Below, in pieces: positions 12,653 to 61,610 of a stretch of 64,000 nt of DNA. The notes beneath the pieces were generated by a model. It worked only from the letters and a program-made list of their open reading frames with translations. It was not told where the DNA came from and did no database searches. How positions within the stretch are numbered: the first letter of the stretch is position 1; every line of letters starts with the position of its first letter. Origin of the DNA: an uncultured Thermococci archaeon (GTDB taxonomy: Archaea; CAYQAE01; CAYVLA01); the NCBI GenBank assembly GCA_964549615.1, contig CAZJVP010000051.1, positions 58,740 through 122,739 of the forward strand. The letters run 5' to 3'. A program made the translations under genes and the position numbers.

Positions 12653-13567
12653 TCAGGGCTGCCCGCCTCCGAGTTCTATGGCCTTCCTGACGAATCCGCC
12701 CGACCTCTTGAGGAGTTCCGATGCTTTTTCACGGTCCTGACCGGTCTTGGCCATAACCAGGGCGACCTTGACGTTGTACCCTGCGTCTTGCAACAATCGG
12801 TCGGCTTCGCTCGGCGAAAGGCCGGTCGTCAGGGCAAGGATCTTCCTTGCTCTCGAGCGCAGCTTCTCGCTCCAGGGTTGCAGGTCGACCATCAAGTTGC
12901 CGTAGACCTTTCCTAGCTTGATCATGGACGCTGTGCTGATCATGGTAAGAATGAGCTTCTGGGCCGTTGCGGCCTTCATGCGGGTCGATCCGGCAATGAC
13001 CTCGGGCCCGGTGGGGACGGATATGCAGAGGTCGCATAGATCGGATAGCTCGGAGTTGGGCGTGCAGTCTATGCCCACCGTTCGTGCGCCAACCTCCTTG
13101 GCCCGCTTGAGGGCCGCAACGACCCAGGGGGTCCTCCCGCTTGCCGCAAGGCCGATCACCAGATCACCCGCGCGGACCCCGGCCTCGGACACGGCCTTCA
13201 TTCCATCGGCCGCGCTGTCCTCGGCGCCCTCCTTTGCGCGAAACACCGCGTCAGGCCCTCCCGCGATGAGACCGCGGACTAGGTCAGGGGGTGTCCTGAA
13301 CGTAGGCGGGCACTCCGCCGCGTCGATGATCCCGAGCCTGCCGCTCGTGCCGGCGCCCACGTAGAAGATTCGGCCGCCGGATCTGATCGTCTTGACGTAT
13401 CGATCCACGGCCTCGGCAATCAGAGGGATCCTGGAGGAAACGACGATGGGAACCGACTTGTCCTCCTCGTTGATGAGGGTCAGGATGTCGACGGTCTGCA
13501 TGGAGTCGATGTCCTTGGTCTTGGGATTCCTCGCCTCGGTCAGCAGCCTGTCCAAGTCAACGCCCAT
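12653..13567 (-). CDS. murQ: N-acetylmuramic acid 6-phosphate etherase (SIS domain)
   Basis: 304 aa; GGRIFYVGAGTSGRLGIIDAAECPPTF... and C-terminal MurQ/GckR-family region. Confidence 0.65.
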   Translation of the reverse strand: MGVDLDRLLTEARNPKTKDIDSMQTVDILTLINEEDKSVPIVVSSRIPLIAEAVDRYVKTIRSGGRIFYVGAGTSGRLGIIDAAECPPTFRTPPDLVRGLIAGGPDAVFRAKEGAEDSAADGMKAVSEAGVRAGDLVIGLAASGRTPWVVAALKRAKEVGARTVGIDCTPNSELSDLCDLCISVPTGPEVIAGSTRMKAATAQKLILTMISTASMIKLGKVYGNLMVDLQPWSEKLRSRARKILALTTGLSPSEADRLLQDAGYNVKVALVMAKTGQDREKASELLKRSGGFVRKAIELGGGQP

Positions 13568-13767: not shown

Positions 13768-14100
13768 ATGATCGTGCTAGGAGGCTTGGATGGCGGAGGC
13801 ACGAAGACCCTGTGTGCCCTCGTCGATGAGAGCGGCAGGGTCCTGGCCTTGCATGCCTCAGTGACCATAGTTAGGGAAGCCGCGAAGAACCTTGCCGAGA
13901 TGGTGAGGGCGGTGGCGAGGAAGCTGGGTGTTGTCGAGAATTTCGAGCTGGCGTGCGTCGGCGGCATGTTCCGTGATGGCGAGTTGATGCTTTCCGCCTT
14001 GGATGAAGAACTGAGAATGTTTGGGCTCAGGTGCAACCTCGTCGGGCCGGAACTTCCGCCCGTCGGGGGTGCTCTGCTGATCGCATCCACGATGCTTGGG
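13768..14100 (+). pseudogene. BadF/BadG/BcrA/BcrD-type ATPase (GlcNAc kinase-like), internally deleted
   Basis: N-terminal IVLGGLDGGGTKTLCALVD (phosphate-1) is joined directly to a C-terminal-like ACVGGMFRDGE...LVGPELPPVGGALLIA; ~110 aa where ~300 expected; ORF then runs into the 36-bp repeats. Confidence 0.4.
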
Positions 14101-14208
14101 GTGCCCAGCTCGAGCGGTTTCACCGCTAGGCTCAAGAACTCGTGCTACGCGTATGTGATGCGGCAGGAGAGTGTGCCCAGCCCGAGCGGTTTCACCGCTA
14201 GGCTCAAG
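14101..14208. repeat. CRISPR-like mini-array: two 36-bp direct repeats (1 mismatch) separated by a 36-bp unique spacer
   Basis: 14101-14136 GTGCCCAGCTCGAGCGGTTTCACCGCTAGGCTCAAG; 14173-14208 same with T>C; repeat contains palindrome AGCGG-TTTCA-CCGCT. Confidence 0.5.
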
Positions 14209-14225
14209 GGGGGTCTTTCGGCGGC

Positions 14226-16415
14226 GTGGACGGTGACCAACCGATGGTTCGAATGAGGAGCGGGCATACTGAGATCGCGCTGTCACCGAGGGACGGGTTC
14301 GGTTTCTCTTCCATCCTTGACCGCAGATCGGAATTTGACTGGATCAGGGAACCGGCAGGGCCGGGGCTCTGGAGGCTTACCGGCCTGACCCCAGAGGGAG
14401 AACGCAGGGTGATCACCTCCGGGGACGCAGGGATCTTGATCCTGGAGCGGTCTAGGCGTAGCACATCGCTCGGTTTTGAGGGCCCGGAGGGAATTGGGAT
14501 ACGGGTTGGCTTGGAGGCCCAGCAACGCGACCTTCTGCTCCTGCGGCTCGAGATGCTAACGATGGATGGCCTCGCCGAGGTGGAGCGCCTGGACTTTCCG
14601 TGCCTCGCTGGCTTGGCTCTGCCCCCGGGGGATCCGGCGCTTTCCTACTTTGCCTTCCCGTTCGAGCAGGGCGTGCTCGTCCGCGATCCCGGGACGACGA
14701 TTTTTGCGAACGAGGAGGCCAATTTCCGCCTTTCCGGCACCTACCCCGGCAACTGGTCCGTGCAGTTCGTTGCGTACGGGCAGCACGGCGGCCCCGGCCT
14801 GTACCTTGCAAGCTACGACCCCCTAGGGTGCGTAAAGAGGTTCGTTGCGGAAAGAGCCGCGGACGGCCGCATCGTGTTTTGGGTCGAAAACCATCTCGTT
14901 GACCCCACGCTTCCCGGCGCACTTCCATACCCGCTCGCTATCGGAACCTACGAGGGCTCGTGGCTGGATGCGGCTCGGATCTACGCGAGTTGGGCTTCGA
15001 AACAGAGTTGGTGTTCGCGCCGTGAGCTAACATCGGGAGCCAATGGCCGGTGGGCTCAATCAACCCCCGCGTGGATCTGGAATAGAGGTAGGGCGGCAAA
15101 GGTGGTTCCCAGCGTCCTGAAGCTGTCCGACTACCTCGGTCGGCCCGTGGCCCTAGACTGGTACTGGTGGCATGGAAATCCTTACGACACGTTGCTGCCC
15201 GAGTACCTGCCCCCGAGGGACGGGGAAGAGGCCTTCAGAGAGGCGATCCGTCGCATCCACCGGATGGGATCGAGGTGCATAGCCTACATCAACGGTCGCT
15301 GTTGCGATCTGGCCTCCTCCCACTTCAGCAGCTCCGCAGCCGTCTTCAAGCGGTCTGGCGAGGTCGAGGCCGAGACCTACTGCAAGTACACTGGCGCTCG
15401 GCTGGCGGTGATGTGCCCCGCGACGGAGTACTGGAAGAGCGAGATCACAAGCATCGTCTCCAAGCTCGTTGACTACGGCCTAGACGGGGTCTACATCGAT
15501 CAGGTCGCGTCCGCTCCTCCGAGGCTCTGTTTCTCGGCAGGACACAACCACCCGAGGGGCGGGTGTCTGGCTTGGGCAGAGGGAAACAGGGCTCTGCTGA
15601 GCTCTGCAAGAGCGGCGGCGAAGGCTAGGAATCCCGAGGCAATGCTTTGCTCGGAGGGATGCTGCGAGGTTTACATGGACCTCCTAGACGCCTTCCTAAC
15701 CCTTTCCCCCTCATTTGAGAGGATGGGGATGTTCCGGTCCCTTGGGGATTCTTGGGAGCCCATACCCATGTTCAACAGCGTGTACCACCAGTTCGTGGTA
15801 ACCTTCGGATCCTATGCATCGCTGGGCAATCCCCCCTATGACGAGCTCTGGCCGCCGAGGACTTCAGCTGACGAGGCGGATCTCTCGCGGTTCACCGATC
15901 AGTTTGACTTGGAGGTCGCCCGGTGTCTCGTGTTCGGCCAAAAGCCGATGATCGCCAACTTCGAGCCTGGCCAATTGAAGCGGGCGAAGATGAAAAGGAG
16001 CCTCGATTTCTTCAGGGAGGTCTGCATGCTTCATGAACGCTTGGAGGACCACTTGGTTAGGGGTAGGTATCTCGGATCCCCGGAGGTCAGCGCCCCTCCG
16101 TTCAAAGTCCGTTGCTTCAGCAAGGGCATTTACACGCTTCCTGGACAATCGCGGACGACGGTCAGGACGGTCCCATCGATTCTGGCAAGCGCCTGGGAGG
16201 CTCCTGACGGATCGGTCGCTGTCGTTCTGGCAAACATATCGCCCCGCTTGCATCGAGTTCAACTGGACCTCTCCAAGTTCGGGGTCACCAGCGACGCGAG
16301 ATTGCTGCGCATCGAGCCGAGGGGTGGCGCACATCCTGGGCGGCAGTTGTCCGGGAGGAGGATCACGGTCCGCGGCAAGCACGTCGTGGGGCTCAAGGCG
16401 GCCGAAGGGCGATGA
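14226..16415 (+). CDS. Large hypothetical protein, possible TIM-barrel glycoside-hydrolase-like (GH114-like DGVYIDQ segment)
   Basis: 729 aa; LDWYWWHGNPYD...LVDYGLDGVYIDQVAS...; no secure family call. Confidence 0.4.
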   Translation: MDGDQPMVRMRSGHTEIALSPRDGFGFSSILDRRSEFDWIREPAGPGLWRLTGLTPEGERRVITSGDAGILILERSRRSTSLGFEGPEGIGIRVGLEAQQRDLLLLRLEMLTMDGLAEVERLDFPCLAGLALPPGDPALSYFAFPFEQGVLVRDPGTTIFANEEANFRLSGTYPGNWSVQFVAYGQHGGPGLYLASYDPLGCVKRFVAERAADGRIVFWVENHLVDPTLPGALPYPLAIGTYEGSWLDAARIYASWASKQSWCSRRELTSGANGRWAQSTPAWIWNRGRAAKVVPSVLKLSDYLGRPVALDWYWWHGNPYDTLLPEYLPPRDGEEAFREAIRRIHRMGSRCIAYINGRCCDLASSHFSSSAAVFKRSGEVEAETYCKYTGARLAVMCPATEYWKSEITSIVSKLVDYGLDGVYIDQVASAPPRLCFSAGHNHPRGGCLAWAEGNRALLSSARAAAKARNPEAMLCSEGCCEVYMDLLDAFLTLSPSFERMGMFRSLGDSWEPIPMFNSVYHQFVVTFGSYASLGNPPYDELWPPRTSADEADLSRFTDQFDLEVARCLVFGQKPMIANFEPGQLKRAKMKRSLDFFREVCMLHERLEDHLVRGRYLGSPEVSAPPFKVRCFSKGIYTLPGQSRTTVRTVPSILASAWEAPDGSVAVVLANISPRLHRVQLDLSKFGVTSDARLLRIEPRGGAHPGRQLSGRRITVRGKHVVGLKAAEGR

Positions 16416-16445
16416 GTTGGGCCGCGATGCTCGACGTCTTTGCGG

Positions 16446-17693
16446 TCATTCTTGACCTCGAGACTTGGTCGATCTGACTTCCTTGTAAAGGATTCGGCGG
16501 ACGAGCAGGCTGTAGACCACAAGCCCCGACGCGAAAAGCGTCCCCGTCACGGCCGACCACTCGGTGACGTAAACCCACAACAGCGCCCGGTCCTTCAGCC
16601 TCATTGCATTGTTGGCAATCGAGGATATCCTGTCGAGCGCCTCCAGCATCGATTTGGAAGCTAGTGCGAAATCCTGCGTCCTGTATGCCTCAAAGGAATC
16701 CTCCTTCAACCGGCCCACGCGGGCTATCTCGGCCTCTAGCGTCCTTGTGTTTGCTCCGAACCTGTCGACGAAATCGAGAAGCGAGAAGAGGAGCAACCGG
16801 TCCTCGTTATACCGCCAGTAGCGCATCCTGAGATCGTGGACGAGGAGCACGTCCTCAGGCAGCGAACGGCCCGTTGAGTGAAGAAGGATGTTCAGGAAGA
16901 TGTCTATGGCGTACACGTTCTGGCTCAAACCGTGGACGGAGGACCACCACGTTGAGTCCAGGTCATCCGCGACAACCCAGAACAGGCCGCCGTTTGCACC
17001 AACCTTCCAGGATACGAGCCAATCGCCCGAGGCGCTCGATGGCAGGGTGGCGGATGAGAGCTTGCCCCAGAGGGTCGCTCCGGCCCTGGTCGTGAGGTAG
17101 GTGAAGGCGGAGGCTCCCCGGACGTTCTCAATTCCCAAAGGAACGAACATGGACAGGAGCGGTGGATCCTTCTTTACCACCTTGATGCTGAACGTCGACC
17201 CATCCTGCTTCATCTTGTCGTTCAGCTCGACGGGCAGGATCTCCTCCAGCACGGAGTTCTTCCAGCCGGGATAAGCCTTGCCCGTGGGGCTCGACAAGTC
17301 GCCTCCCATCGTCACGAAGGCTCCCAGGCCGCTTTCCATGGCGTATCTCATGTCGGCTATCTGGGCCGGCGTGAAAGGTTCGATGTAGCCGTCGGGAAAC
17401 ACGAAGAAGTCGAAGTCCTGGACGAGGGACTCGCGAGTCTTTGGGAAGTAGATCCTGATATAGCGGCGCCAAGCCTGTTCCATCACGCGCTGGCCTGCCA
17501 CGGCCTGGCCGGCCATGATGTCGATGTCCGTGGGGATGAGCACGTAATCCACCAGCGGGTCGGCGTCGAACCAGTAGGGTATGGGGGATTCGCCCGGCAT
17601 GACCTGCCCTATGGCCAGGACGTTGATCCCCTCCGTGCAGATGACCGCCGTTGGGCACATGAGGACGGAGAGGAGAATCCAGATGTATTTCAT
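16446..17693 (-). CDS. Paralog B of the 5-member secreted/C-terminally anchored family
   Basis: ORF extends to 17918 but signal peptide MKYIWILLSVLMCPTAVICTEG starts at 17693, giving 415 aa (same length as paralog A); motif block INVLAIGQVMPGE...WFDADPLVDYVLIPTDIDIMAGQ almost identical to A. Confidence 0.6.
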   Translation of the reverse strand: MKYIWILLSVLMCPTAVICTEGINVLAIGQVMPGESPIPYWFDADPLVDYVLIPTDIDIMAGQAVAGQRVMEQAWRRYIRIYFPKTRESLVQDFDFFVFPDGYIEPFTPAQIADMRYAMESGLGAFVTMGGDLSSPTGKAYPGWKNSVLEEILPVELNDKMKQDGSTFSIKVVKKDPPLLSMFVPLGIENVRGASAFTYLTTRAGATLWGKLSSATLPSSASGDWLVSWKVGANGGLFWVVADDLDSTWWSSVHGLSQNVYAIDIFLNILLHSTGRSLPEDVLLVHDLRMRYWRYNEDRLLLFSLLDFVDRFGANTRTLEAEIARVGRLKEDSFEAYRTQDFALASKSMLEALDRISSIANNAMRLKDRALLWVYVTEWSAVTGTLFASGLVVYSLLVRRILYKEVRSTKSRGQE

Positions 17694-18023
17694 GCGGCTA
17701 GCACCCAGGAAAGGCACAGCGGTCGTCTCGACGAGCTGTGGCGTGAAATCTCTCTTAATGGTTTCGAGGGTTGGTCGATCATTGGGGGGATCCGTTGACG
17801 TGTCGTCCGCCGCCCCCGTGGCACGATGCTCAAGCTGCGGTGCGGATGCGCGTGGGGTTTTCCACAACCCGAACAGGGACGGAACTCCAGAAAGTTCTCC
17901 GGAAGAGTCCCCGAACACGTTTTAAGACGGGAAACCCAACTACGTGCTTGGCCAGGGACATTCCTGACGTTGGGTGTGAGGCAGACAAGGTGGTTCTGGG
18001 TGAGACGCGTGGGCGTGTGCCTT

Positions 18024-19214
18024 ATGTTGCTTGCCGTGGCGTCCGCGGCCCTCATGGGCACATACCTCAAAGGTCGCGGGGATATGCCTGAAAATAAGAC
18101 TGACTTTTCTGGAGGCGATGAGCTGCCCTACCCACAGGGAACACAATTCCCAATGATGCTTTACTCCGTGGTCGCGGAGGATCTGGTTTCTGTGAAGAAC
18201 GAGGGGTTCAACCTCGTCCACACCTACAGCTTCGACAGGAGCTGGTTGGAGGACGTTCGCAGGGTAGGGCTCCATGCCGTGGTGCCGATCGGCGCCTATG
18301 ATCAGGCAAGCCTTTGGAACGAACCGCAAACCGAGAACTTCGTGTCATCCTATGCGGATGACTTCAGCGTCGCTTGGTGGGGTCTTCCGGAGGAGATGAC
18401 GTGGACGGTGGATTGGAAGCTCAACCAGTTGGTGGATCTATCTTCCTGGGTACGTAGGTATGATGCTAACAAGAGACCGACGTACGAGTACCTTGCGGGC
18501 AACTACATAGCTTACGACATACGGAACTACGTTCCCTACGTGGACATAATCGGCATTGGTGCGTACGTCGACTATAATGAACAGCCGCGGCAGTGGATAA
18601 GGTGGGCGGTGAAACAGGTCATAGACGGAATCACGCAGGCCGGGTTCAGCGTTGGCCGGGACTACCTGGGCAGGGAGAGAGTGCCGGTGGCGGTTTTGCA
18701 GATGTTCATAGAGGGAGGGACGCATGTCCAGACGGGGCCGGAGTCCTACCATGATGTCTGGAGCGCGGTCTGCGCCGGCGCAAAGGGGATTCTAGTCTTC
18801 TCCCACAGTTATAGGGGACGTTTCGGCCCGGATGTCTATGAGGCCTTTGTCAAGGCAGCTCGCCAACTCACCGGGGAGCACGACCTTGGCAGGGTGGCGT
18901 TATTTGGACAGGATCTGCCAGGCATCGTGACCAATGTCATTTCGGGCCCCGCAACGACGCCACCCTTCGACTCGTGGGGCGGCAAGGCCATCTCGTTTCC
19001 GACTATGAACGTGATGGCTCGAGAATATGAAGGGAAGAAGTACATCTTCGCGGTCAACGATGTGGACGAGCCCATAACTGCCAAGTTTGCTAACCTGCCC
19101 CTTGAGGTGACCCGCGCCGTTGTGATCGACGAGGGCCGAACCATACCAGTTAGCGGGGCAAGCTTCGTCGACAGCTTTGGCAACTGGGGCGTTCACCTCT
19201 ATTTACTCGAGTAG
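18024..19214 (+). CDS. Secreted hypothetical protein, possible TIM-barrel glycosidase-like
   Basis: ORF opens at 17826, likely start MLLAVASAALMGTYLKG (signal) at 18024; FNLVHTYSFDRSWLEDVRRVGLHAVVPIG. Confidence 0.4.
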   Translation: MLLAVASAALMGTYLKGRGDMPENKTDFSGGDELPYPQGTQFPMMLYSVVAEDLVSVKNEGFNLVHTYSFDRSWLEDVRRVGLHAVVPIGAYDQASLWNEPQTENFVSSYADDFSVAWWGLPEEMTWTVDWKLNQLVDLSSWVRRYDANKRPTYEYLAGNYIAYDIRNYVPYVDIIGIGAYVDYNEQPRQWIRWAVKQVIDGITQAGFSVGRDYLGRERVPVAVLQMFIEGGTHVQTGPESYHDVWSAVCAGAKGILVFSHSYRGRFGPDVYEAFVKAARQLTGEHDLGRVALFGQDLPGIVTNVISGPATTPPFDSWGGKAISFPTMNVMAREYEGKKYIFAVNDVDEPITAKFANLPLEVTRAVVIDEGRTIPVSGASFVDSFGNWGVHLYLLE

Positions 19215-19441
19215 GAGGAGGGTTTGGTGGAATGCGGGGCCATGCCAGTTCCTCGACTCTTTGGAGCATGCCTCAGCGCCACCACCAGCATCGGCGATAC
19301 GGCGGGATGCAAGATGCGCATTCTCGATAAGCGCCGAATCCATTTTGCCCAAACATGCTGCTCCAGGTTCAGCCCCGGAGGAGGCCCCGGCGGGATCCGA
19401 ACAAGGTTTGCCCCCTATGTTTCCCGCGACGAAAGATGGTT

Positions 19442-21724
19442 TCAAGACGATTGTGACCCGTTTGGCTCCCCACCATTCCGCCTCCGGCATATTCTGAGCG
19501 CACAGGATGACAATGGTGGCAATTTATGCTGGAACCGCACAGCCCCACCAAGGTGAGCGGCACATGCAGAAGCAATCTCCTCCTGCGTCAATGCGTCGAT
19601 TAGTGAGAATTGCCCGGCCGCTTTGATCCCGAAATATCCGGGCCACACCTCCACAACGACAGTCGTTGTACGCGTCTCGTTGTTGACCAAGTAGACCATC
19701 AGGTCTCTGCCTTTCCTGAAGCAGGAAATCAGATCGCTTGCATCAGTCGGGATGACCCTCACTGGGCCTTTGGGAAGACTCTCCGCGAACGCCCGCAACA
19801 AGCCTGTAACGGTTGGATGGCTCAGCTTTATCTCCCCTGTTAGCCCGGTTCGGAGGACCAGCCCTTTACCAACTTGATTGATCACTATGGCCCCCGTCTT
19901 GCTCGCCGACCATATTCCCACCACGTCCGCAACCGTCGCCTTGAGGGAGCGGGAAGGTTCAGGCCTAGGATAAAGACCCGGCTTTGGAATGCAGGGCCGC
20001 TCCTGGAATATCTGCAGATCCCCCTCAGCTGGCTCCTGCGTCTCATGACTGCCCACCACCTGCATGTTGAACGGCTTGAGGCTGCTCGCATCTCCGTTCT
20101 CATCCTCCATCATGGAATCTGAACCGCACAGGAGCATCCCGCCATCCCGGATCCAGTCGGTCATGCCCCCTGCGGCACCCTTCCTTATGTTTCTCAGACA
20201 GCTGAAGCCGACGACGGCTCGATACCTGTGGGGGTGTTGGGCCATCAACGGCATAAAGTCGGCATAGGTCGGGTTGGCAGACAGGCCCATCCTGGAGAAG
20301 AACACGTACAGTTCGAAGAGTTCCCTCAGGCTCTCTTCACCACGGATCACGCTCGGATAGTTGTACGGGAGCATGATCTGGCCGTAGACTTCTTTTCCAT
20401 CCTCAGACGCGAGGAAGAGCTGCCTTGCTTCGCGATTGATGCGGGCGGCCGCCTCGATCGCCTCCTCCTCGCTTAACGGCCTCTTCGGGCAAGCATCATC
20501 AGCGATGCCAGGAGGAAACCCCCAACAGACCAGTCCACTGGTTCCCCTCCCTATCGCCACGTAGAACTGTTGGAGGATCTCCTTAGCGGTCGGAGCTCTG
20601 ATCGTGCTCATGTCGTAGCCGCTATAGCTTGAGGAAAGCTGGAACTGGCACATGATGGGCTTGCCCGTGATCAGGGATATGGACCGATAGGTCTCGAAGT
20701 CGAAGGCGTAGCCCCCTATGTTCCATGTGTCGCCCGATTCCATCGGGTAGGGGTCCATGAAGAGTACGTCGCACAGCTCGCTCACCTTCGCCCAGTCGGG
20801 GTACTCGGTCGCCCAGGAGGACCTGGGGTACTTCATGACGACGGACATCAGGGCATCCGGGATGTACTCCCGAATGGTCGATCTCACGACCTCCATCCAG
20901 CCCATGAGGCCCTCGGTGAAGAACTGACTGAGTTCGTGCCAGAGCCGTTCGTTGCTCCGGTCCACGGGCAACGGGACTTCGGAGAAGGATCCATACGCGG
21001 TGTTGTGAGCGGCGTTGAATCGGCGTATGTCCTTGTAGATGCGCGGGAGATAATCGTCACACCATGACCTGCGGCAGGTCTCGCAGTAGCAGAAGCCCCT
21101 GTCAACCGTATCGTTGTGGATCACGAAGATGGGTTGTCCGTCGTCGTCTAGGTAGGCATCTCTTCCCTTTATGCGAAACCTTGCCAGACAATCCTGAAAC
21201 TCGTGACTGCGGGCATATCTATCGAGCAGTTGTTTGAGGCGGCCCCGCGTGTACCACCGGACCTTCTCGCTTCTGAAGCACTCGTGGTAGTAGACCGTGT
21301 AGTGTAGGGTTCCGTCGGATTTCCTTTTCGCTGCATCGAGGTTCTTCCACAGCCATTGGGCGGGCAAGTTGTAACATACGGCCATGACCACCTTCAGCCC
21401 CTTCTCCCTTGCCAGGCCGAGCAGGCCCGCAAACGCTGCTTCGATCTCCTCCTGCAGCCTCGGATCAAAGGATAGCGGTTCCATCGTCTCGGGGGCATGT
21501 TTCGGGTACCAGAGCTGGGCGTGGGTCGTGCCCATAGTCGGATGTCGTGAGATGTCGAAGAGGTAGACCGCATTGAACCCCATCCTCCTTATCTTCTCCA
21601 TGTCCTCCGCGATCTGGGCAGACAACTTGTTCGGCTCAAATCCTCCCGTCATGGCCTGGGGGAGGTACATCACCCCCAGCAGTCTCCTGAAGGAAGAATC
21701 CGGATGCTGCATACGATGAGGCAC
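19442..21724 (-). CDS. Large glycoside-hydrolase-like protein (GH42-like TIM barrel suspected)
   Basis: 760 aa; EDMEKIRRMGFNAVYLFDISRHP near N-terminus; no signal peptide. Confidence 0.4.
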   Translation of the reverse strand: MPHRMQHPDSSFRRLLGVMYLPQAMTGGFEPNKLSAQIAEDMEKIRRMGFNAVYLFDISRHPTMGTTHAQLWYPKHAPETMEPLSFDPRLQEEIEAAFAGLLGLAREKGLKVVMAVCYNLPAQWLWKNLDAAKRKSDGTLHYTVYYHECFRSEKVRWYTRGRLKQLLDRYARSHEFQDCLARFRIKGRDAYLDDDGQPIFVIHNDTVDRGFCYCETCRRSWCDDYLPRIYKDIRRFNAAHNTAYGSFSEVPLPVDRSNERLWHELSQFFTEGLMGWMEVVRSTIREYIPDALMSVVMKYPRSSWATEYPDWAKVSELCDVLFMDPYPMESGDTWNIGGYAFDFETYRSISLITGKPIMCQFQLSSSYSGYDMSTIRAPTAKEILQQFYVAIGRGTSGLVCWGFPPGIADDACPKRPLSEEEAIEAAARINREARQLFLASEDGKEVYGQIMLPYNYPSVIRGEESLRELFELYVFFSRMGLSANPTYADFMPLMAQHPHRYRAVVGFSCLRNIRKGAAGGMTDWIRDGGMLLCGSDSMMEDENGDASSLKPFNMQVVGSHETQEPAEGDLQIFQERPCIPKPGLYPRPEPSRSLKATVADVVGIWSASKTGAIVINQVGKGLVLRTGLTGEIKLSHPTVTGLLRAFAESLPKGPVRVIPTDASDLISCFRKGRDLMVYLVNNETRTTTVVVEVWPGYFGIKAAGQFSLIDALTQEEIASACAAHLGGAVRFQHKLPPLSSCALRICRRRNGGEPNGSQSS

Positions 21725-22077
21725 GGAGACAGCCAGCGTCGCTTTTAAGGTTTAGGGTCCGCGGGCGGTCTCGACTGGGAGGCGCAAGCTGAGGTGACTA
21801 CTGTGGAGAGAGCATTTTCCCGTACCGAGGTCGGCCTTCCGGGGGCACTCCAAAGAGAAGGCTGCCCGGTAGCGTTCGCGAAGCACTCGGTAGCGTCAGC
21901 TGCTCTCCATGTCCTAGGCACCCCCGCACAGGCTTCGGTGCATGGTTCCTCATGGTCAGACCGGCCGTGAGATCGGCGCAACCCAGCTTGGGCAATGCGA
22001 TCCGGGGACGATACGTTTATGGGCGACACCTCCGCGAACATCACGGTCACAAAGCCAGCTCACAGGGGCCACCTCTC

Positions 22078-24345
22078 ATGCCGAAGATCGATCTAACGGA
22101 GGCCACGATCGTCGTTGGTGAAAGGGCCGGGCCTGAATCCCCAGCTGCTCAGGTTCTGAGGGAGGAAGTCCAGAAGCGGACGGGCATCCTTTGGGAGGTC
22201 AGCTGCGATTGGCCCAGCAAAGGGAACGTGATCGCCTTGGTAACCGGGGGATTGGACGACCTCGCCGGTCGCTTGATACCCCGTCGACAGGGAAAGGATC
22301 TTCCCGAGCGGCGGCCGGAGGGCTACAGGCTGTGTGTACAACGGCTGTCCCCCCGACGCGACGTCGTCTGGATCGCTGGGGCTGACGGGAGGGGGGTTCT
22401 CTTCGGCGTCGGTCACCTACTGAGGCTCCTCATGCTTTCCAGAGGATCGGCCGAACTCGGGGAGCGGGTGGACCTTTCAACGGCCCCGGCCTATCCCATC
22501 CGAGGGCATCAGCTCGGGTACCGCGACACTGCGAACTCCTACGACGCTTGGACGGTGGAACAGTACGAGCAGTACATCAGGGAGCTGATCATCTTCGGGG
22601 CGAACTGCATCGAGAACATACCGTTTCAGGGCAAAACCAGCGTGCTCATGAAGCTGCCCCGCCGTGAGATGAACAGGAGGCTGAGCGAGCTGTGTGCCAA
22701 GTACGACATCGACTACTGGGTCTGGACCCCGGCCGAGTTCGACCTTTCAAACGAGGCCCTGCGGCAGCAAGCAATCGAGCAACACGAACAGCTCTATCGG
22801 GACTGTCCGCGTCTGGACGCGATCTTCTTTCCGGGAGGGGATCCAGGCGGAAACCACCCGAGGCTGGTCATGCCGTTCTTGGAGGAGCTCTCCAAGCGCC
22901 TTAAGGTCCACCACCCGAAGGCGGGGATCTGGATCTCGCTGCAGGGATTCAGCCGGGAATGGGTCGAGTACTTTTTTGGGTACGTGGAAGAGCGTAAGCC
23001 GGATTGGCTGGCCGGCGTCGTGGCGGGCCCGAGCAGCCCTCCCATCGATATGACCAGGGCGCGTCTACCAAGGAGGTACAGGCTTCGCAACTACCCGGAC
23101 ATCACCCACACCGTACGGTGCCAGTTCCCGGTTCAGGGCTACGACCAGGCCTTTGCCCTCACCTTGGGACGGGAGCCCTGCAACCCGAGGCCTACCTTCT
23201 ATGCCCGGATCCACAACTTCTACGCGCCCTACACGGACGGTTTCCTATCCTACTCAGATGGCGCGCACGACGATCTGAACAAGGTCGTCTGGACAAGGAA
23301 GGCCTGGGACCCGGAAGAGGATGTCGGGAAGATCGTCCTTGGATACTGCCGTTTCTTCTTCGGGGCGGACGTCGCGGATGACGCCGCGGCGGGCATCTTT
23401 GCCCTAGAGAAGAATTGGGAGGGTCCGCTTGCCGCGAACATGACTGTCGAGAAGACCCTTGATCACTGGAAGGATCTGGAGAGGAGGGCTCCGCATCTGG
23501 CCGGGAACTGGCGATGGCAGCTGTTCTTGCTCCGGGCCTACTACGATGCCTATACGCGCAGAAGGCTGATCTACGAAAAGGGCCTGGAGAGGCAGGCGAT
23601 GGCGATCCTCGTGGATATGGACAAGATCGGGATTGACGTTGCCATGGAAAGGGCCCTGGAGACCGTCAAGCGAGCCGATACGGAGCCCATCTGCGAAGAT
23701 CTCAGACAGCGCATCGAGGATCTGTGCGAATCCCTCTTTCAGTCCATAGGACTCCAGACCAGCGTCGCTCGATATCACGCAAGCGGCTCCGAGAGGGGAT
23801 GCGTCCTTGACTTCCTCCGCTATCCCCTCAACAACCGTTGGTGGCTGGAGGATGAGTTCGCAAAGATCCGGCAGATGACAAGCGAGGAGGAGAAGCGTTC
23901 GCGGCTGGAGGTGATCAGGACCTGGGAGAACCCTGGGCCGGGCAGCTTCTACGACGACGTCGGCAACGTAGCCAACTCGCCCCACGTGGATCCGCTGTAC
24001 AACCTCGGGATCGGGTTTGCATGGTGGGATCGCGGCTACAGCAGGACGAGGCTTTCATCCCAGACCTACATCAACCGGCCCAAGCTTCGGTACGAAAACC
24101 TGGATCCGAACGGCAACTACCTGATCCGCGTCGCCGGTTTCGGCGAGGCGCTCCTTGAGGTCAACGGCGAAAGGATCCAGCCCACCCTGTACAACAAGGG
24201 GGAGGGCCAGTTCAAGGAGTTCCCCGTCCCGAAGCGGCTCCTGAAGGATGGGGTGATCGAGGTCACGTTTGCCAAGCCGGACGAGGACCACTTGAACTGG
24301 CGGCACCGGTCACGCGTCTCGGATGTCTGGCTGCTCAGGACCTGA
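22078..24345 (+). CDS. Large glycoside hydrolase with GH67/GH89/GH115-like N-terminal domain
   Basis: ORF opens 21952, probable start MPKIDLTEAT at 22078; EGYRLCVQRLSP...GADGRGVLFGVGHLLRLL resembles the N-terminal domain of alpha-glucuronidase/alpha-N-acetylglucosaminidase-type GHs. Confidence 0.4.
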   Translation: MPKIDLTEATIVVGERAGPESPAAQVLREEVQKRTGILWEVSCDWPSKGNVIALVTGGLDDLAGRLIPRRQGKDLPERRPEGYRLCVQRLSPRRDVVWIAGADGRGVLFGVGHLLRLLMLSRGSAELGERVDLSTAPAYPIRGHQLGYRDTANSYDAWTVEQYEQYIRELIIFGANCIENIPFQGKTSVLMKLPRREMNRRLSELCAKYDIDYWVWTPAEFDLSNEALRQQAIEQHEQLYRDCPRLDAIFFPGGDPGGNHPRLVMPFLEELSKRLKVHHPKAGIWISLQGFSREWVEYFFGYVEERKPDWLAGVVAGPSSPPIDMTRARLPRRYRLRNYPDITHTVRCQFPVQGYDQAFALTLGREPCNPRPTFYARIHNFYAPYTDGFLSYSDGAHDDLNKVVWTRKAWDPEEDVGKIVLGYCRFFFGADVADDAAAGIFALEKNWEGPLAANMTVEKTLDHWKDLERRAPHLAGNWRWQLFLLRAYYDAYTRRRLIYEKGLERQAMAILVDMDKIGIDVAMERALETVKRADTEPICEDLRQRIEDLCESLFQSIGLQTSVARYHASGSERGCVLDFLRYPLNNRWWLEDEFAKIRQMTSEEEKRSRLEVIRTWENPGPGSFYDDVGNVANSPHVDPLYNLGIGFAWWDRGYSRTRLSSQTYINRPKLRYENLDPNGNYLIRVAGFGEALLEVNGERIQPTLYNKGEGQFKEFPVPKRLLKDGVIEVTFAKPDEDHLNWRHRSRVSDVWLLRT

Positions 24346-25133
24346 CGCTCGGGACGCACTCCGCATAGCCGCACGGGTGGACAGCCTCTTTCTGGCCCGC
24401 AATAAGGATCTTCTTGATGATCTCGCTCTGGCCTAAACGGGCTGGGACCCCCTGGTGAGGCCTACCTGATGGTCCATCGTCGCGATCCTCCCGTAGCTGC
24501 CGCTGACGTGGACCGGATGCGGCTAGAGCTTGATCGGCTCCTCGTCTAACTTCGTGATGTTCGTGATCTTGCCTCCATCAATTCGTCTATCCTGTCCTTC
24601 ATCTCGGCCAACGGACGAGCTGGCCCCCGTAGCGTGACTGCAGAACCTCAAGGCCGAACGGCCTCCTCTCCTCAAGCCAGAGGGCCGTGTGAGCCTTGAG
24701 CCACCTGTCATGCGCTGGATGACCCTCGGGATCTCCTCGAAGTCCTGCGGAGCCCCTTCACGTCCTTCTTCACGTACGCCTCCCGTGCTGTGCTGGGGGA
24801 GATCGACCTTCGCCTCAAGGACCTCCGCCAATCACTTGGCATGGGCGAACGACACCCTATCTGAGGGCGAGGCTCCCTTCGCGGCCTGGGCCATGAGATC
24901 CGATAGGGCCTTGATGCGAGGTCCAAGATGGGTCCCGGCGTAGTGCTCGGCGAAGATGCCCAGGAGGCAATCATCCCAAGGCATGGTCTTGCTGATGCTG
25001 GCCTTGGCTTGGATGCTTTCCTTGTCCCGACCCCGATAGTGATCCGGCCGCCCGGGCAGGCGCTCGCCTCAGACTGCCAACCTGTTCATCCGATATCACA
25101 GGGCCCCTGCGAAACGGTAAAGAGGCCCTGCTC

Positions 25134-25979
25134 TTGAGAGGCCTACTTGGTGGTCTTCTGAGGCTCAGCAATCCTGGTGGCCTCAACCAACAGTGGAAGC
25201 ATCCCGAAGAGTTGAGGGCCCCGGCCTTCCGGATGATCGGGAACGTCTACTACGTCGGCAACCTCAACGTGAGCAGCCATGTCATCGTGGGCCAGGCCGG
25301 CCATGTGCTCATCGACACGGGTTTTTCGACTACCGTTCCGCTCCTGGTGCAAAGCATCAGGCACCTCGGTTTCAAAGAGCGGGATGTGAGGATGATCCTC
25401 ATCACCCACGGCCACGTCGACCACGCCGGCGGGGCAAGGAGGATGGCCAGGATCACAGGAGCCCCCGTGGCGGTGCACAGGCGGGATGTCCGGACCGTCG
25501 AAACCGGGAGCGAGCTGACCTGCGCCCACTACATCTACGGCATCGAGGATTTCGAGACCTTCAAGGTTGACAGGGTTCTCGAGGGTGGGGAGACGCTGCA
25601 TGTCGGGGACATCGTAATCAAGGTTCACCACACCCCTGGCCACACGCCCGGCGTCTGCAGCTACGAGATCCCCCTGCATCATGAGGGCAGGAAACTCACG
25701 GCCTTCATCTTCGGGGGCCCGGGCCAGTGGACCTTCAAGCAGGAGAACAGGAGCCAGGGCTACGAGGGTGATGTTGAGGAATACTCAAGGTCCCTGGACC
25801 ACTTGGAGCGGATCAAGGTCGACATACCCTTGGGGGCCCACCCCAACCAGACCCGTACCTTCCAGAAGTACGAGATCCTCAAGTCCAACCCCGCCGGACC
25901 GAACCCGTTCGTCGACCCTGACCACTGGCCTGCCTTCATAGGCAAGCTGCGGGCCAGCCTGGCTTCCTTGAGGGGCTAG
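25134..25979 (+). CDS. Metallo-beta-lactamase-fold hydrolase
   Basis: VLIDTGF...ILITHGHVDHAGG...HTPGHTPG motifs. Confidence 0.6.
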   Translation: MRGLLGGLLRLSNPGGLNQQWKHPEELRAPAFRMIGNVYYVGNLNVSSHVIVGQAGHVLIDTGFSTTVPLLVQSIRHLGFKERDVRMILITHGHVDHAGGARRMARITGAPVAVHRRDVRTVETGSELTCAHYIYGIEDFETFKVDRVLEGGETLHVGDIVIKVHHTPGHTPGVCSYEIPLHHEGRKLTAFIFGGPGQWTFKQENRSQGYEGDVEEYSRSLDHLERIKVDIPLGAHPNQTRTFQKYEILKSNPAGPNPFVDPDHWPAFIGKLRASLASLRG

Positions 25980-26326
25980 CGGCCGATCAGGCTGCAAGTT
26001 AGCGGCCATGTGTGGACGAGGCGAAACCGAGGACTTGCCGACGGTCGACCAACGCCTTGGTAGAGTGTCCTCGTTACCGAGAGACCGGAGCAAGAGCTAG
26101 GTGGATGCTGTTGGGTTGCCCTTGTTGATGGTCAGATACGGAGGCTTTTGATGGCAGTCAGGCATGCGGCCGTGTGTTGGGCGGTTTGTCTGATGGACCC
26201 TCGGCCGCCGGGAAATTGCCGGACGAGGGTTCGGAGACCTCACCTGACGAAATCTCTTTATTGGGCGGGGAAGTCGGGACGCAAACGTTGTAGCGGTCTT
26301 TCACCTGGGAGCTGGCAGGAACTCCA

Positions 26327-29209
26327 ATGCGTCGCGTACTCGAATTCCCCCCGAAGTTTAGAATGTTGCGGCCAAGCGGAACGCTCATAATCACGAGCGA
26401 TGAGGAAATGGAGAAGCTGGAGAAGGATCCCGGGATGAAGGTCCGGGCATTCGACTCCAGTTTCACTGACATCTGCCGCAACCTCCCCGGCAAGGGAGGC
26501 GCCCATGTCGATGTCGCGTACGACTTCTTCTTCGGGGGAAAAGAGCGGAAGTACTTCCCAACCAGCGACCAATGCATCCAAACCTTCCGCGCGCTCCACG
26601 ACATAGCAAAGCAGCACGGCCTGGGCTTCGGCGCCAGCGTAATGTCGCCCTTGGACCTGGGTCCTGCCTATTCGAGCCTTAAGGACCACTGCGGACAGAC
26701 ATGCCAGTTCCGGGAGGGAATGATAGACTCCGAGGGTCGATACGAAGTCAAGCTGCCCATCCAGCGTCGATGGTTCCACAACAAGGGCCCCGTCAACCTG
26801 ACGGTGAACCACGTGGAGGCCTTCGCCTTCAGCGAGACACGGATCCGCGGCACGTCGTGCTGGCACGTGGATCCGGCCGAGATCCTGGACATCTCCTCCA
26901 CCGCTAGGCTTGTGGTGGATGAGTCGACGCGGAAAACCAGCGGCTCGGGCTACAGCTTCGTTCAGGGCTGCATCGTGGGCAAGGCTGACGGATTGGGCAA
27001 ACGAGACAGGGTCCTGGCTGTCATCGTCTACGATGTCGAAGAGATGGATTACTTCCACGCGGATGCATTGCCGTTCCTCAAGCAGGTGATTGAGGATCAC
27101 GCCCGGGCAGGCATAAGCTACTCCAGCTTCTACTCTGACGAGATGCACATACAGTTCGACTGGGACCTCGGCGCCCACTTCGGCCCGACCGAGATCACCA
27201 CGAGGTATCTAACCCCGGGGCTTGTCCGGGCCTACTGCAAGCGATATGGATCGGGGTACCGGGACTTCCACAAGTACTTGGTCTACTTCGCCTATGCGCA
27301 GCATTCCTGGGACGGCCCGGACTACTGGAGGCGGGGCGACCAGCACGTCCTGGGCCCGAGCCCCAATGGGATCTACCAGACCTGGAAGATGCGAAGGGAC
27401 TACTTCCGTCTGCTGCAGGACCATGTCGTGGAGCTCTTTGTCCAGGCCAAGAGGTATGCCGAGAAGCTCTTCGGACATCGGATACTCACCCGGGCCCACG
27501 CGACCTGGCAGGAATCTCCCACCTGTGACCAGTTCGACCTTGGCGTCGGCTTCGGGGGCAAGTGTGGCACCGAGAAGATGGAGGTTCCCGTCTCGCGGTA
27601 CGACTACACCCCTCGTTACGTCTGGTCCTCAAGCATCAGGGAGAGCCAGAGCGCCTGCTATGACTACTTCCGCTGGGGAGACTACCTGACCGGCATGGGC
27701 ACCGACCATCCGGAGGGCGGCTACATCGACCGCAACTACCACGGTGCGGCCCTGGCATGCTCTTTCGGGCACTACAACGAGCTTGACTACGGGTATTACG
27801 GCCACTGGGGCGCGCCCCGGGCGGTCTCCGATCGCGTGCACGACCTTGCCGCCGCGATGGGGCTCGGAGGAGGGGCAATGGCCCACGTCCAGGGCTGGCG
27901 ACATCGCAGGTCGCCAGTCCTGTGTCTTTACCCCCTCGACCTCAACTACGTCGAGGAGCGGTTCGGCAGTTGGACGATACAGTACGGGTACGCGGACTAC
28001 CTCACCGAGGAGAAGTTCGTCGAGCTTGTGCATGTCCTGCCCAACGGGCGCTTCCGCCTCAAGGACCTCACCTACGAGGCACTTGTCGTGCTCTTCGAGC
28101 CCCTGGTCCTTCGCAGGACCCTCGACGTCATCGAGAAGATCGTCAGGCAGGGAGGTACCGTTGTCTGGTGTAGCGTCCCCCCAGCCGTCTGCCTGGACGC
28201 CAGAGGCGATGTCAGGGCCCGGTTCCTCCGCATCTTTGGTCTGAGATCGGCCCGCAGGCCCCATCTGGGCATGAAGGCGAAGGACGCCATCGTGAGGTTC
28301 GAAGGTGCGCTCGGGGAGGTCCCAAGCCTCCGGATCCCGACCGACCTTCTTCCGGACCTCGTGTTTCCCGTGATTCCCCGCGGGTCGCAGCCCGTTGCCC
28401 GGGTGATGCTCGAAGGGAGGCGGAGGGTCGTCGGCGCGCTGCGCGTAACGCGGTCCGGGGGGAGAGCGCTCTACCTAGGCTTTCGCCCCAGGGACGACCA
28501 GTCTCGATCAACGCCAGACGCCCCAAGGACGCTTTTCCATATCCTTTCCAGTCTGGGGATCTACTCCGCCTGCGGCCCCGGAGCCGCGGAGTACGCCTCA
28601 AACACGAGCGACTACCTCGTCGCCGAGTCCCCAAACGGGGCGCTGTCCTTCGCCCGGCACTACTGGAGCGTGGCCGAGAACTGGGCCGGCGGCTTCTTCA
28701 GGCCCAAGGATGAGTCATGCGATGAGTCTGCCCTGCCGCCGAGGCGGCTGGAACTAAGGGACTTCAGGGTCGGGAAACGGGTCATAAACTACGCGGGCCT
28801 GTACAGGATGTCGTTCCTCGAGAAGGAGGGGAATCTGGAGGCCTTCTGCGGATTCGGCACCAAGGGCATCTCCATCGACGGTCCATCGGGTAGATCCTGG
28901 TTCGCATTCGCGGACGAACCGGTAGACCTTGCCTTCGCCCCCGTTCCCCGTGAGCGGCTGGCCAACGGCATCGAGAAGGCTTACTTCCTCCAGGCCAGGT
29001 CAGGGCAGCAAGCCGTCCGCCTGCCCATCCCTTTCGACCCTCGTCTTAGGCTATTGGTGGACGAGAGGGAAGACGGATGCGGGTCCGAGGCCAGATCAAA
29101 GATAGCCCCTGCCGAGCAGGGGATGCTGGTAACGATCGTTCCTGAGGAGCAGGGGCGAAGCCTTTACCTCATCGTCGAGCATGCCGAGACGGAACCCTCG
29201 AGCCTCTGA
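26327..29209 (+). CDS. Very large hypothetical protein (960 aa), cytoplasmic by sequence, Trp/Tyr-rich
   Basis: Single long ORF with coding-like composition; the antisense 306-aa ORF rejected; no family recognised. Confidence 0.4.
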   Translation: MRRVLEFPPKFRMLRPSGTLIITSDEEMEKLEKDPGMKVRAFDSSFTDICRNLPGKGGAHVDVAYDFFFGGKERKYFPTSDQCIQTFRALHDIAKQHGLGFGASVMSPLDLGPAYSSLKDHCGQTCQFREGMIDSEGRYEVKLPIQRRWFHNKGPVNLTVNHVEAFAFSETRIRGTSCWHVDPAEILDISSTARLVVDESTRKTSGSGYSFVQGCIVGKADGLGKRDRVLAVIVYDVEEMDYFHADALPFLKQVIEDHARAGISYSSFYSDEMHIQFDWDLGAHFGPTEITTRYLTPGLVRAYCKRYGSGYRDFHKYLVYFAYAQHSWDGPDYWRRGDQHVLGPSPNGIYQTWKMRRDYFRLLQDHVVELFVQAKRYAEKLFGHRILTRAHATWQESPTCDQFDLGVGFGGKCGTEKMEVPVSRYDYTPRYVWSSSIRESQSACYDYFRWGDYLTGMGTDHPEGGYIDRNYHGAALACSFGHYNELDYGYYGHWGAPRAVSDRVHDLAAAMGLGGGAMAHVQGWRHRRSPVLCLYPLDLNYVEERFGSWTIQYGYADYLTEEKFVELVHVLPNGRFRLKDLTYEALVVLFEPLVLRRTLDVIEKIVRQGGTVVWCSVPPAVCLDARGDVRARFLRIFGLRSARRPHLGMKAKDAIVRFEGALGEVPSLRIPTDLLPDLVFPVIPRGSQPVARVMLEGRRRVVGALRVTRSGGRALYLGFRPRDDQSRSTPDAPRTLFHILSSLGIYSACGPGAAEYASNTSDYLVAESPNGALSFARHYWSVAENWAGGFFRPKDESCDESALPPRRLELRDFRVGKRVINYAGLYRMSFLEKEGNLEAFCGFGTKGISIDGPSGRSWFAFADEPVDLAFAPVPRERLANGIEKAYFLQARSGQQAVRLPIPFDPRLRLLVDEREDGCGSEARSKIAPAEQGMLVTIVPEEQGRSLYLIVEHAETEPSSL

Positions 29210-33879: not shown

Positions 33880-34925
33880 CAGAAGTTTCCCTCCCTCTCC
33901 TTATGAATGTTCCGGCCGGTGGAGAAAGAAGAAGTAGAAAAGGTGCTCATGTGCAGGGACTATGCCCAGGGACACACAACCTACGACTGTCCCAAGTGTG
34001 GCCGCATCACTATCGTACCCTTCACGTGTAAGAGCCGCCTATCCTCGGCCTGTGGGAAGAAACACACCGACAGATGGGCAGACAAGGTCAGCGCCGAGCT
34101 TCTGGAGGTAGCCCATCGGCACATGGTCTTCACCACACCAGACAAGCTCTGGCCCCACCTGGAACAACACCGATGGCTACTCAAGGACGTCATGGACACG
34201 GTCAAAACAGCGCTGGAGGAGGTGGTAAACCACAGGTGGAAAGCCCTCCAGATAGTCCCAGGGATAATCAAGTCCTCCACACCTATGGCAGGGAATTCAA
34301 GTTCAACCCCCACATCCAGGCCATAGTGACGGACGGGGACTCAGAGAAAGGGACTAGTACGGCGGGGAGAGGCGGATGGATGTCAACTTCTTTCCCTACG
34401 AGAAGCTGAGAAAGGTGTGGCAGCACCAGCTGGTCACAGGGATCAGGGAGAAACTCCCCCACGACAAGGAGCTGCACAGCCTCCTGGACCAGCTCTACAG
34501 GGAGAAGGAGAACGGATTCTACGTCTACGCCAAGAGAAGGATCGAAGGCAAGGAGAAGGAGTTCATCTGCAGATACGTCGCAAGGTACGTCCGCCACCCA
34601 GCCATAGCTGAAACCCGAATAAACAGCTACAACCCGCACACCAGGATGGTCGAGTTCTGGTACAGACACGACGACGACACGGAAACAGTGAGCATGCACG
34701 TCTACGAGCTCATAGGCAAGCTCATAGGACACATACCACCTAGACAGTTCAAGACGATAAGGTACTACGGCCTGTACGCCAGGAACAAGAAGAGAAAGAT
34801 CCAAGATGTGCTGATTGTAGCTCACATTCTCATGAATGTTTCGCTACGAGTAGCGCCACGAGCGACGGGCGAGAAAAGTATAAATGGGGCCCTGTCTAAA
34901 GGCAAGACGGAGGGAGAATGATGCA
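33880..34925 (+). mobile_element. IS91-family-like transposase remnant (zinc-binding domain + Y2-transposase domain) split over three reading frames
   Basis: Frame 1 (33907-34326): DCPKCGRITIVPFTCKSRLSSACGKKH zinc domain; frame 3 (~34250-34330): VLHTYGREFKFNPHIQAIVTDGD (HxH motif); frame 2 (34376-34921): ...KTIRYYGLYARNKKRK (catalytic Y motif); at least 2 frameshifts. Confidence 0.5.
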
Positions 34926-60669: not shown

Positions 60670-60819
60670 CCACCGGGTTGACCGCCTCCAAACCGCGGCT
60701 TGGGTCTTCCCGGACGGCCGAACCCGTCTCCGTCAAGCCCCCAGGCTGGTCTCGGTCCCGGTCAGCCGATGGTTACAATTATAAACCGGCCATGGAGCCG
60801 GCTGCCTCACGGGTTTGCG

Positions 60820-61482: not shown

Positions 61483-61610
61483 ATGCGGGAAGCGGTCATC
61501 GGGATGGGCCGGGCGATCCATGCTCCAGGCCTGACAATATTTATCACGTGTGCCCAGGCGGCAGTGGCGGTGATGGGTTGAAGGACGAGATCGCTGGCAT
61601 AATCTGCGCA

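Follow-up and report, generated by a model that had tools for sequence, protein, structure and literature searches.

Five genes with glycoside hydrolase-type folds

We analysed 64,000 nucleotides of DNA from an uncultured Thermococci archaeon (contig CAZJVP010000051.1 of assembly GCA_964549615.1, positions 58,740 to 122,739; hereafter the window), in which a run of five large genes, here called A to E, lies between positions 14,226 and 29,209. The window matches part of a public metagenome contig at 100%, from whose gene calls the start positions were taken, and it has a GC content of about 60% along its whole length. A preliminary description of this DNA had listed the five open reading frames (ORFs) as glycoside hydrolase (GH)-like. 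All of them exist in the ORF listing at the coordinates it gave, but the one at 19442-21724 (C) sits on the minus strand and the starts needed correction; the public gene calls move those of A, B and C and give the same boundaries for D (Table 1). For E, the homologues favour the methionine M13 (position 26363, 948 aa), and an ORF start is possible at 26327 (960 aa).

All five proteins are GH-type by profile or by fold, as had been described, and each comes from a different family. That none belongs to a nameable family holds for B, D and E, for which Pfam and NCBIfam gave no significant assignment, but not for A, a clear member of DUF6259, or for C, which passes the Pfam cut-off for GH42. NCBIfam gave no match for any of the five, and PDB searches with the single sequences returned nothing useful. 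A hydrophobic N-terminal segment is found in B alone of the five, in agreement with the earlier remark that most of them have no signal peptide; the neighbouring 423-aa ORF (U423) also carries such a segment. The richness in tryptophan and tyrosine is real but modest: the two residues make up 5.8-8.4% of A to E compared with 2.0-4.7% of the MurQ, LeuA, nucleotidyltransferase and two GT4 enzymes of the window, whereas its GH57, phosphorylase-like and PhoPQ-related genes, at 5.2-6.5%, overlap the range of the run. We regard it as probable that the five GH-fold genes of the run form a patchwork, each transcribed independently and each from a different family that is poorly characterised or uncharacterised. 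A, C, D and E, which carry no export signals, would be cytoplasmic and work on oligosaccharides taken up by the cell, and B would be anchored or secreted outside the membrane.

Table 1. Features of the run, of its surroundings and of related loci. Positions refer to the window except where a related locus (L number) is named.
Feature	Position	Strand	Description
U423 paralogue	1509-2756	+	about 420 aa, signal-like N-terminus, C-terminal transmembrane helix
Glycogen-phosphorylase-like protein	10684-12453	-	N-terminal YHS (metal-binding) domain
MurQ-like	12653-13567	-	adjoins the run
BadF/ROK-type sugar kinase remnant	13768-14256	+	162 aa, directly 5' of A
A	14253-16415	+	720 aa, cytoplasmic, DUF6259 (Pfam PF19773, E 3e-85)
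U423	16446-17717	-	423 aa, signal-like N-terminus, C-terminal transmembrane helix, no family; breaks up the run
B	18000-19214	+	404 aa, signal-anchored, clan-GH-A-like TIM barrel
C	19442-21673	-	743 aa, cytoplasmic, GH42-like
D	22078-24345	+	755 aa, cytoplasmic, very large unnamed family
ORF-free gap	24346-25133		790 bp, between D and the metallo-beta-lactamase-fold gene
Metallo-beta-lactamase-fold protein	25134-25979	+	281 aa, between D and E; Pfam Lactamase_B, E 2.8e-24
E	26363-29209	+	948 aa, cytoplasmic, unnamed family
Transposase fragment	34376-34921	+	Y2_Tnp-type, E 2.6e-21
Three paralogous ORFs	42080-43381, 44722-46044, 47819-49159 (minus)		weak GATase1_like (PF07090) matches
Ceramidase-like	46193-47446		17-34 kb from the run, with BNR and PIG-L
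BNR (BNR_4)	59149-60669	-	17-34 kb from the run
B12-binding corrinoid protein	60700-61482		
DHDPS/N-acetylneuraminate-lyase family	61548-62459		
PIG-L deacetylase	62456-63328	-	17-34 kb from the run
U423 homologue	L007:4583-5857		full-length, 29% identity, beside a D homologue (GCA_964452145.1)
Weakly GH99-like protein	L028:10887-12626		about 580 aa; also in L023, L025, L031 and L032, among ten loci
Beta-helix/DUF1349-like protein	L010:3720-6671, L011:6971-9937, L090:3021-6059, L091:5321-7870		upstream of D homologues, a PF28584 'GH_cat' gene sometimes between

Protein D and its family

A word-indexed search that scored 8,000 candidates placed D in a family of more than 4,317 significant 90%-identity clusters, nearly all of which span the full length (750-820 aa). 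Identity to D is 54-64% for homologues from Bacteroidales, Draconibacterium, KSB1, BRC1 and a hydrothermal-vent metagenome, and 76-80% for closer relatives. For a GH family this degree of conservation is unusual, and it suggests one well-defined substrate that is widespread. The D of the window has no signal peptide; many Bacteroidota homologues are about 25 residues longer at the N-terminus.

The N-domain of D had been described as GH67/89/115-like, and this is supported: it is of the GH67/GH20b type by sequence, and the overall fold is GH115-like. Pfam models for this domain (Glyco_hydro_20b or Glyco_hydro_67N) were seen in 27 of 40 relatives, and the D-family profile matched PDB chains in the N-domain only (GH84 NagJ and GH67, E about 2e-4). 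The AlphaFold2 model of D (pLDDT 91.4, pTM 0.91) has a GH20b/GH67N-type alpha/beta N-domain (residues 1-135), a (beta/alpha)8 barrel (about 141-400), a helical bundle (about 416-614) and a C-terminal beta-sandwich. With this model, Foldseek ranked GH115 first (4c91, E = 6e-19, TM about 0.5, 12% identity), followed by GH84, GH67 and GH20, and the identity to any solved structure was 7-15%. D resembles GH115 alpha-glucuronidases, GH84, GH67 and GH20 in overall fold and in the type of N-domain, but their catalytic models do not recognise it. The Pfam catalytic models for GH20 (PF00728), GH84 and GH67 found no match in D or in the 40 relatives, and the Glyco_hydro_115 catalytic model was absent from D at E <= 0.01 and from the 40 relatives at E <= 1. 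DUF4838 (PF16126), the model of GH163 and GH185, was seen faintly in 10 of the 40 relatives (best E 0.031, below the Pfam threshold) and in the D of the window not at all.

GH20 enzymes carry the motif H-x-G-G-D-E after strand beta4, with an adjacent Asp-Glu catalytic pair (PMC10570127). At the same place the D family has an invariant F-P-G-G-D-P-G-x-N, in which 'GGD' is retained and the catalytic Glu is replaced by Pro. Its Asp, D255 (nt 22840-22842), is likely to be central to catalysis, judged from conservation and from the model; possible partners are E179 (beta2), Y339, D341 and H344 (beta7) and Y392, D394, D398 and D399 (beta8). D would most likely be an exo-glycosidase of the GH115/GH20/GH84/DUF4838 structural class, with D255 as the single conserved carboxylate of the GH20-like 'GGD' after beta4.

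The homologues of D in Bacteroidota are located in SusC/D loci, where a PF28584 'GH_cat' protein, a downstream URO-D-like protein, sulfatases, GFO_IDH_MocA, ThuA, GH2, GH89, GH95-like and GH130 recur as neighbours. Just upstream of the D homologue, four of five Bacteroidota loci encode a protein of 850-1,012 aa that matches Beta_helix and DUF1349 faintly and is absent from the window. DHDPS genes, of the kind seen near the end of the window, and URO-D-like (methyltransferase-type) genes are recurring neighbours of the Bacteroidota homologues, which hints at demethylation or acid-sugar steps.

Protein E and its family

E itself has no match in Pfam, in NCBIfam or among PDB sequences. Its family comprises at least 576 full-length homologue clusters and was found in 528 species when one genome per species was scanned, among them Armatimonadota, Anaerolineales, many rumen and gut Clostridia (Oscillospiraceae, Faecalibacterium-like), Treponema, Hydrogenedentota, Planctomycetota, Acidobacteria and Verrucomicrobiota; Hydrogeniiclostridium mannosilyticum is a cultured isolate with a homologue. 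An alignment of 47 sequences has a mean column identity of 44% and about 90 invariant positions. Neither E nor its 47 relatives matched a Pfam catalytic domain even at E <= 1, the only models found being those of the middle domain, and the E-family profile matched GH35 and GH42 chains of the PDB at positions 586-741 only.

The structural model of E has a (beta/alpha)8 barrel with a beta-sandwich insert of about 115 residues (about 111-225), a GATase1/GH42M-like middle domain (about 560-720) and a C-terminal beta-sandwich. The order of barrel, GATase1-like domain and beta-sandwich is that of the GH42 beta-galactosidases, the archaeal GH35 exo-beta-D-glucosaminidase GlmA and the GH164 beta-mannosidase. 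E differs from all of these in that its barrel has no sequence similarity to their models (identity 9-12%), in the inserted beta-sandwich and in being about 250-300 residues longer.

Invariant residues were placed on the DSSP string of the model, from which the strand numbers were derived. R62 falls after beta2, H379, W382 and E384 after beta6 and W482 after beta8. D259-E260 follows beta4 (strand 255-256) in 'FYSDEMHIQFDWD', and D448 and E451 follow beta7 (strand 444-447) in 'GTDHPEGG'; E260 and E451 are encoded at nt 27140-27142 and 27713-27715. We infer from conservation and model that this is the classic clan-GH-A pattern. Because of this pattern of invariants at strand ends, E260 is the candidate acid/base and E451 (or D448) the candidate nucleophile. 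E would most likely be a clan-GH-A-style glycosidase built like GH42, GH35 GlmA and GH164, in which the GATase1-like domain serves oligomerisation.

Clustered neighbours were counted in 80 loci that carry E. Sugar ABC-transporter genes (a binding protein and two permeases) are found near E in 8-12 of the loci, and a 579-aa protein with no Pfam family and a faint GH99 match (E = 0.005) adjoins E in ten. Less frequent neighbours are an AraA-like isomerase (five loci), GFO_IDH_MocA (four), DUF5722 (three), a GH106 rhamnosidase with RhaT (two) and AP_endonuc_2 (two). These neighbourhoods fit a cytoplasmic enzyme that acts on imported oligosaccharides, and no single partner indicates the substrate. 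The weakly GH99-like protein, which is the most consistent partner of E, belongs to loci of the Clostridia type and is absent from the window. Some gut and rumen Clostridia have two or three E paralogues (Oscillospiraceae RGIG4660 in loci L045, L050 and L044; Faecalibacterium sp. UBA1762 in L055 and L057), and two of those in RGIG4660 lie about 12 kb apart on the same contig. Multiple paralogues suggest diversified specificity within the family.

Protein A

A matches Pfam DUF6259 (PF19773) over profile positions 3-300 of 300 with 286 bits against a cut-off of 28.7, and the same model is present in all 68 of its 68 homologues; a weak GHL6 match is below threshold. When a profile of 30 A-family members was searched against the PDB, it found one group of solved structures, the GH129-like alpha-1,3-(3,6-anhydro)-D-galactosidase DagB (5opq, E = 2e-10), which is also represented there under another name. 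The alignment covers two short stretches, the N-terminal beta-sandwich and one barrel segment. In DagB (ZGAL_3152), mutation of any of four acidic residues, D202, D486, E517 and E531, is inactivating (PMC5698469). E517 is aligned to the family-invariant E468 of A (nt 15654-15656); D202, D486 and E531 lie outside the aligned stretches. Because of the profile match and the alignment of E517 with E468, A appears to be a remote relative of this characterised exo-glycosidase, and it would be a DUF6259 enzyme with at least one mutationally essential glutamate in common with DagB. The candidate catalytic residues are E468, E472 and D416.

The two proteins also have the same domain order, an N-terminal beta-sandwich, a TIM barrel and a C-terminal domain. 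Unlike DagB, A is cytoplasmic, comes from a lineage that does not look marine, has no carrageenan genes nearby and belongs to a family, DUF6259, without a characterised member.

Proteins B and C

B has no Pfam or NCBIfam match. An exhaustive HMMER search gave 578 representatives of its family, a domain of about 360 residues that is often found inside larger proteins. The B-family profile matched GH158 in the PDB (9oro, E = 2e-9; 6pal, E = 5e-6) and also GH2 beta-glucuronidase barrels. The match to 9oro is limited to positions 52-191, a stretch that takes in the first half of the barrel and reaches as far as the acid/base region. There, a W-x-L-P-E-E motif (E130/E131 in B) is nearly invariant in the family and holds the putative acid/base. 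B is like the GH158 endo-beta-1,3-glucanase and the GH2 beta-glucuronidase in this half of the barrel and in the P-E-E motif, but the match stops before the half that contains the nucleophile. In the column expected for the beta7 nucleophile, which is variable, most members have 'L-E-x-F', with Glu in about 60% of the family; B has Gln (Q233), as do several relatives. These features suggest that B is a membrane-anchored clan-GH-A-type barrel, remotely GH158- or GH2-like.

C matches Pfam Glyco_hydro_42 over profile positions 51-330 of 376 (52 bits against a cut-off of 21, E = 9e-14) and keeps the CYCxxC zinc motif of GH42 in a pairwise alignment to 3tts. It differs from GH42 at the canonical NE acid/base and at the nucleophile Glu. 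The acid/base motif 'SNE' of 3tts faces 'HND'/'TV' in C; where 'HVSNEYGGYCYCDNC' of 3tts is aligned to 'IHNDTVDRGFCYCETC' of C, no Glu stands at or beside the acid/base position, which is provisional as the alignment is weak. The segment of the nucleophile strand, 'KPIMCQFQ', contains no Glu either, so that on a provisional reading C lacks the catalytic glutamates of GH42. Both the HND and the KPIMCQFQ features are kept in four metagenomic relatives of 52-72% identity. With residue alignments drawn from one weak pairwise alignment, a motif match by eye and five close relatives, C is provisionally called a GH42-like protein that appears to be without both canonical catalytic glutamates, and not a demonstrated GH42 enzyme.

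Pfam found neither GH42M nor GH42C in C. The region after its barrel aligns with a GH42M-containing protein of locus L007 at 26% identity. In profile-profile comparisons the E family gave no significant match to the single C sequence, and an alignment of the C family linked the middle domains only (hhalign, post-barrel domain of C against middle domain of E, E = 2.8e-4, probability 41%). A comparison of B with C was not significant.

Since Gln occupies the expected clan-A nucleophile position, the hydrolase activity of B and C is not assured; another residue might take this role, cleavage might be substrate-assisted, or the proteins might not be hydrolases.

Are D and E new glycoside hydrolase families?

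The preliminary description had spoken of possibly novel GH families. This stands for D and E, which are outside every Pfam and NCBIfam model and PDB sequence; A is in a named DUF that is uncharacterised, and B and C are divergent barrels of the clan-A type. D and E are known folds outside the sequence families compared (Pfam, NCBIfam and PDB; CAZy was not among them), and a literature search for new GH42-like or GH115-like families returned no paper on either but brought up the one on GH185, which served for comparison. As a tentative proposal, which we consider quite possible but short of probable, D and E would found two new GH families. The first, of more than 4,300 clusters including the Bacteroidota, KSB1 and BRC1 homologues and often in SusC/D loci with sulfatases, would have a GH185-like single-Asp site derived from the 'GGDE' of GH20. 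The second, with its 528 species, would be a clan-A family of GH42 architecture, marked by its beta-sandwich insert and by a specificity of its own that is new. B and C would, in the same proposal, use substrate assistance on N-acetylated sugars.

Several points weigh against our main reading of the five proteins. The catalytic residues of D and E were placed by DSSP strings and conservation, not by superposition, and another numbering of the strands would make E384 the nucleophile of E. B and C lack the expected nucleophile Glu, and for DUF6259 a literature search returned no paper. The database names of D- and E-family members are 'hypothetical' throughout.

Among the alternatives, it is rather unlikely, though deserving of weight, that some of the proteins, C and B above all and perhaps also E, are not hydrolases but phosphorylases, transglycosylases, or binding or regulatory proteins that use a GH scaffold without catalysis. 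The 'ND' in place of 'NE' and the Gln/Phe at the nucleophile position of C, kept in its relatives, speak for this, as does the Gln of B in a variable column that holds Glu in about 60% of the family. The case for C, however, is drawn from the few alignments described above. Moreover, E and D resemble active enzymes in the many invariant Asp, Glu, His, Trp and Tyr residues with which their barrel strands end, and E is found in sugar-uptake operons.

It is less likely still that D and E belong, as ordinary members, to CAZy families already defined but represented by no Pfam or NCBIfam model and no structure, a point that would also count against their novelty. Several CAZy families were founded on biochemistry alone, and DUF4838 does appear faintly in a quarter of the D-family members searched. 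These matches, however, have E values of at least 0.031, far below the Pfam threshold, and do not include the D of the window. In addition, no PDB chain matches the catalytic domain of D or E by sequence profile, the catalytic domain of E remains without a Pfam match in 47 members, and no source names the D clusters or the 576 E clusters.

Should D and E prove to be active glycosidases that fall outside current families, two sizeable annotation gaps would be closed. Polysaccharide-utilisation loci of Bacteroidota often contain D-type genes, which are common in many candidate phyla as well, and genes of the E type are present in Clostridia of rumen and gut, in Treponema, in Armatimonadota and in Planctomycetota. 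Since both are labelled 'hypothetical' in every genome seen, the glycan linkage that they cleave would be invisible to metabolic reconstructions. The practical yield is two high-confidence models and short lists of residues for mutation.

The run as a probable patchwork

The run had also been proposed to form, with its surroundings, a single locus for the degradation of complex or amino-sugar glycans. All proteins of the window were compared by tblastn with about 90 fetched loci of D and E homologues, and none of these has A, B or C beside D or E; the metallo-beta-lactamase-fold gene was not found beside D or E either. The protein encoded by the latter is not GH-like and has no demonstrated link to the run. 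Only D and the 423-aa membrane protein recur as a pair, and they do so in a single closely related genome. In other genomes the surroundings of D and of E are markedly different. A conserved operon is rejected, as there is no recurrence among these loci.

The accessory genes of the proposed locus are all real, and the MurQ-like gene is adjacent, but 17-34 kb separate the run from the BNR, ceramidase-like and PIG-L genes. Between them and the run lie genes for an Fpg/Nei-type DNA glycosylase, a transposase fragment, a PIN-domain toxin, tRNA-Thr, a pseudouridine synthase and LeuA. The ORF directly upstream of A is divergent from the MurQ-like gene, and its stop overlaps the ATG of A by 4 nt, so that the two are translationally coupled. 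It has a DGGGTKT phosphate motif fused straight onto the C-terminal part: the ROK match covers N-terminal profile positions 2-66, and that of Pfam BcrAD_BadFG (E = 9e-9) is limited to C-terminal positions 196-271. A functional MurNAc/GlcNAc kinase upstream of A is rejected, the ORF being an internally deleted remnant. Near its C-terminus is a tandem 'PS(S/P)SGFTARLK' repeat.

That the run, MurQ, the kinase-like ORF, PIG-L, BNR and the ceramidase-like gene make up one coordinated locus is therefore very improbable: in its favour are five GH-like genes inside 15 kb with MurQ-like and BadF-type ORFs directly upstream, the many hexosaminidases in the fold class of D, a Gln in B and C that is compatible with substrate-assisted cleavage of N-acetylhexosaminides, and Ceramidase_alk-like genes near E homologues in two loci (L002 and L009), but against it are the alternating strands, the unrelated ORFs and the ORF-free gap between the genes, the separation of A, B and C from D and E elsewhere, the distance of the accessory genes past transposase, toxin, tRNA and housekeeping genes, and the decay of the kinase. 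The neighbourhood is rich in glycosidase-like genes and is not a demonstrated pathway, and we favour the patchwork of independent genes.

Other features of the window

Rfam and tRNA scans found nothing inside the run, and a promoter and terminator scan of the region stayed at background level and was uninformative. In the gap between D and the metallo-beta-lactamase-fold gene, neither strand has an ORF of more than 102 aa and Rfam gave no match; the gap could be what is left of a gene, or it could have a regulatory role. The transposase fragment lies in a stretch of lower GC (0.54) just 3' of the run. The kinase remnant, the ORF-free gap and this fragment suggest a region in gene turnover.

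U423 has no match in Pfam or NCBIfam. Its homologue beside a D homologue in another genome indicates that proteins of this type may be a D-associated membrane protein family; a paralogue lies near the beginning of the window.

The three paralogous ORFs with weak GATase1_like matches flank the ceramidase-like gene. A second small cluster (59149-63328) consists of the BNR_4 gene, the corrinoid protein gene, the DHDPS/N-acetylneuraminate-lyase-family gene and the PIG-L gene. Upstream of the run, the glycogen-phosphorylase-like protein with its N-terminal YHS domain is an unusual fusion, and its gene adjoins two GT4 genes and the GH57 gene.

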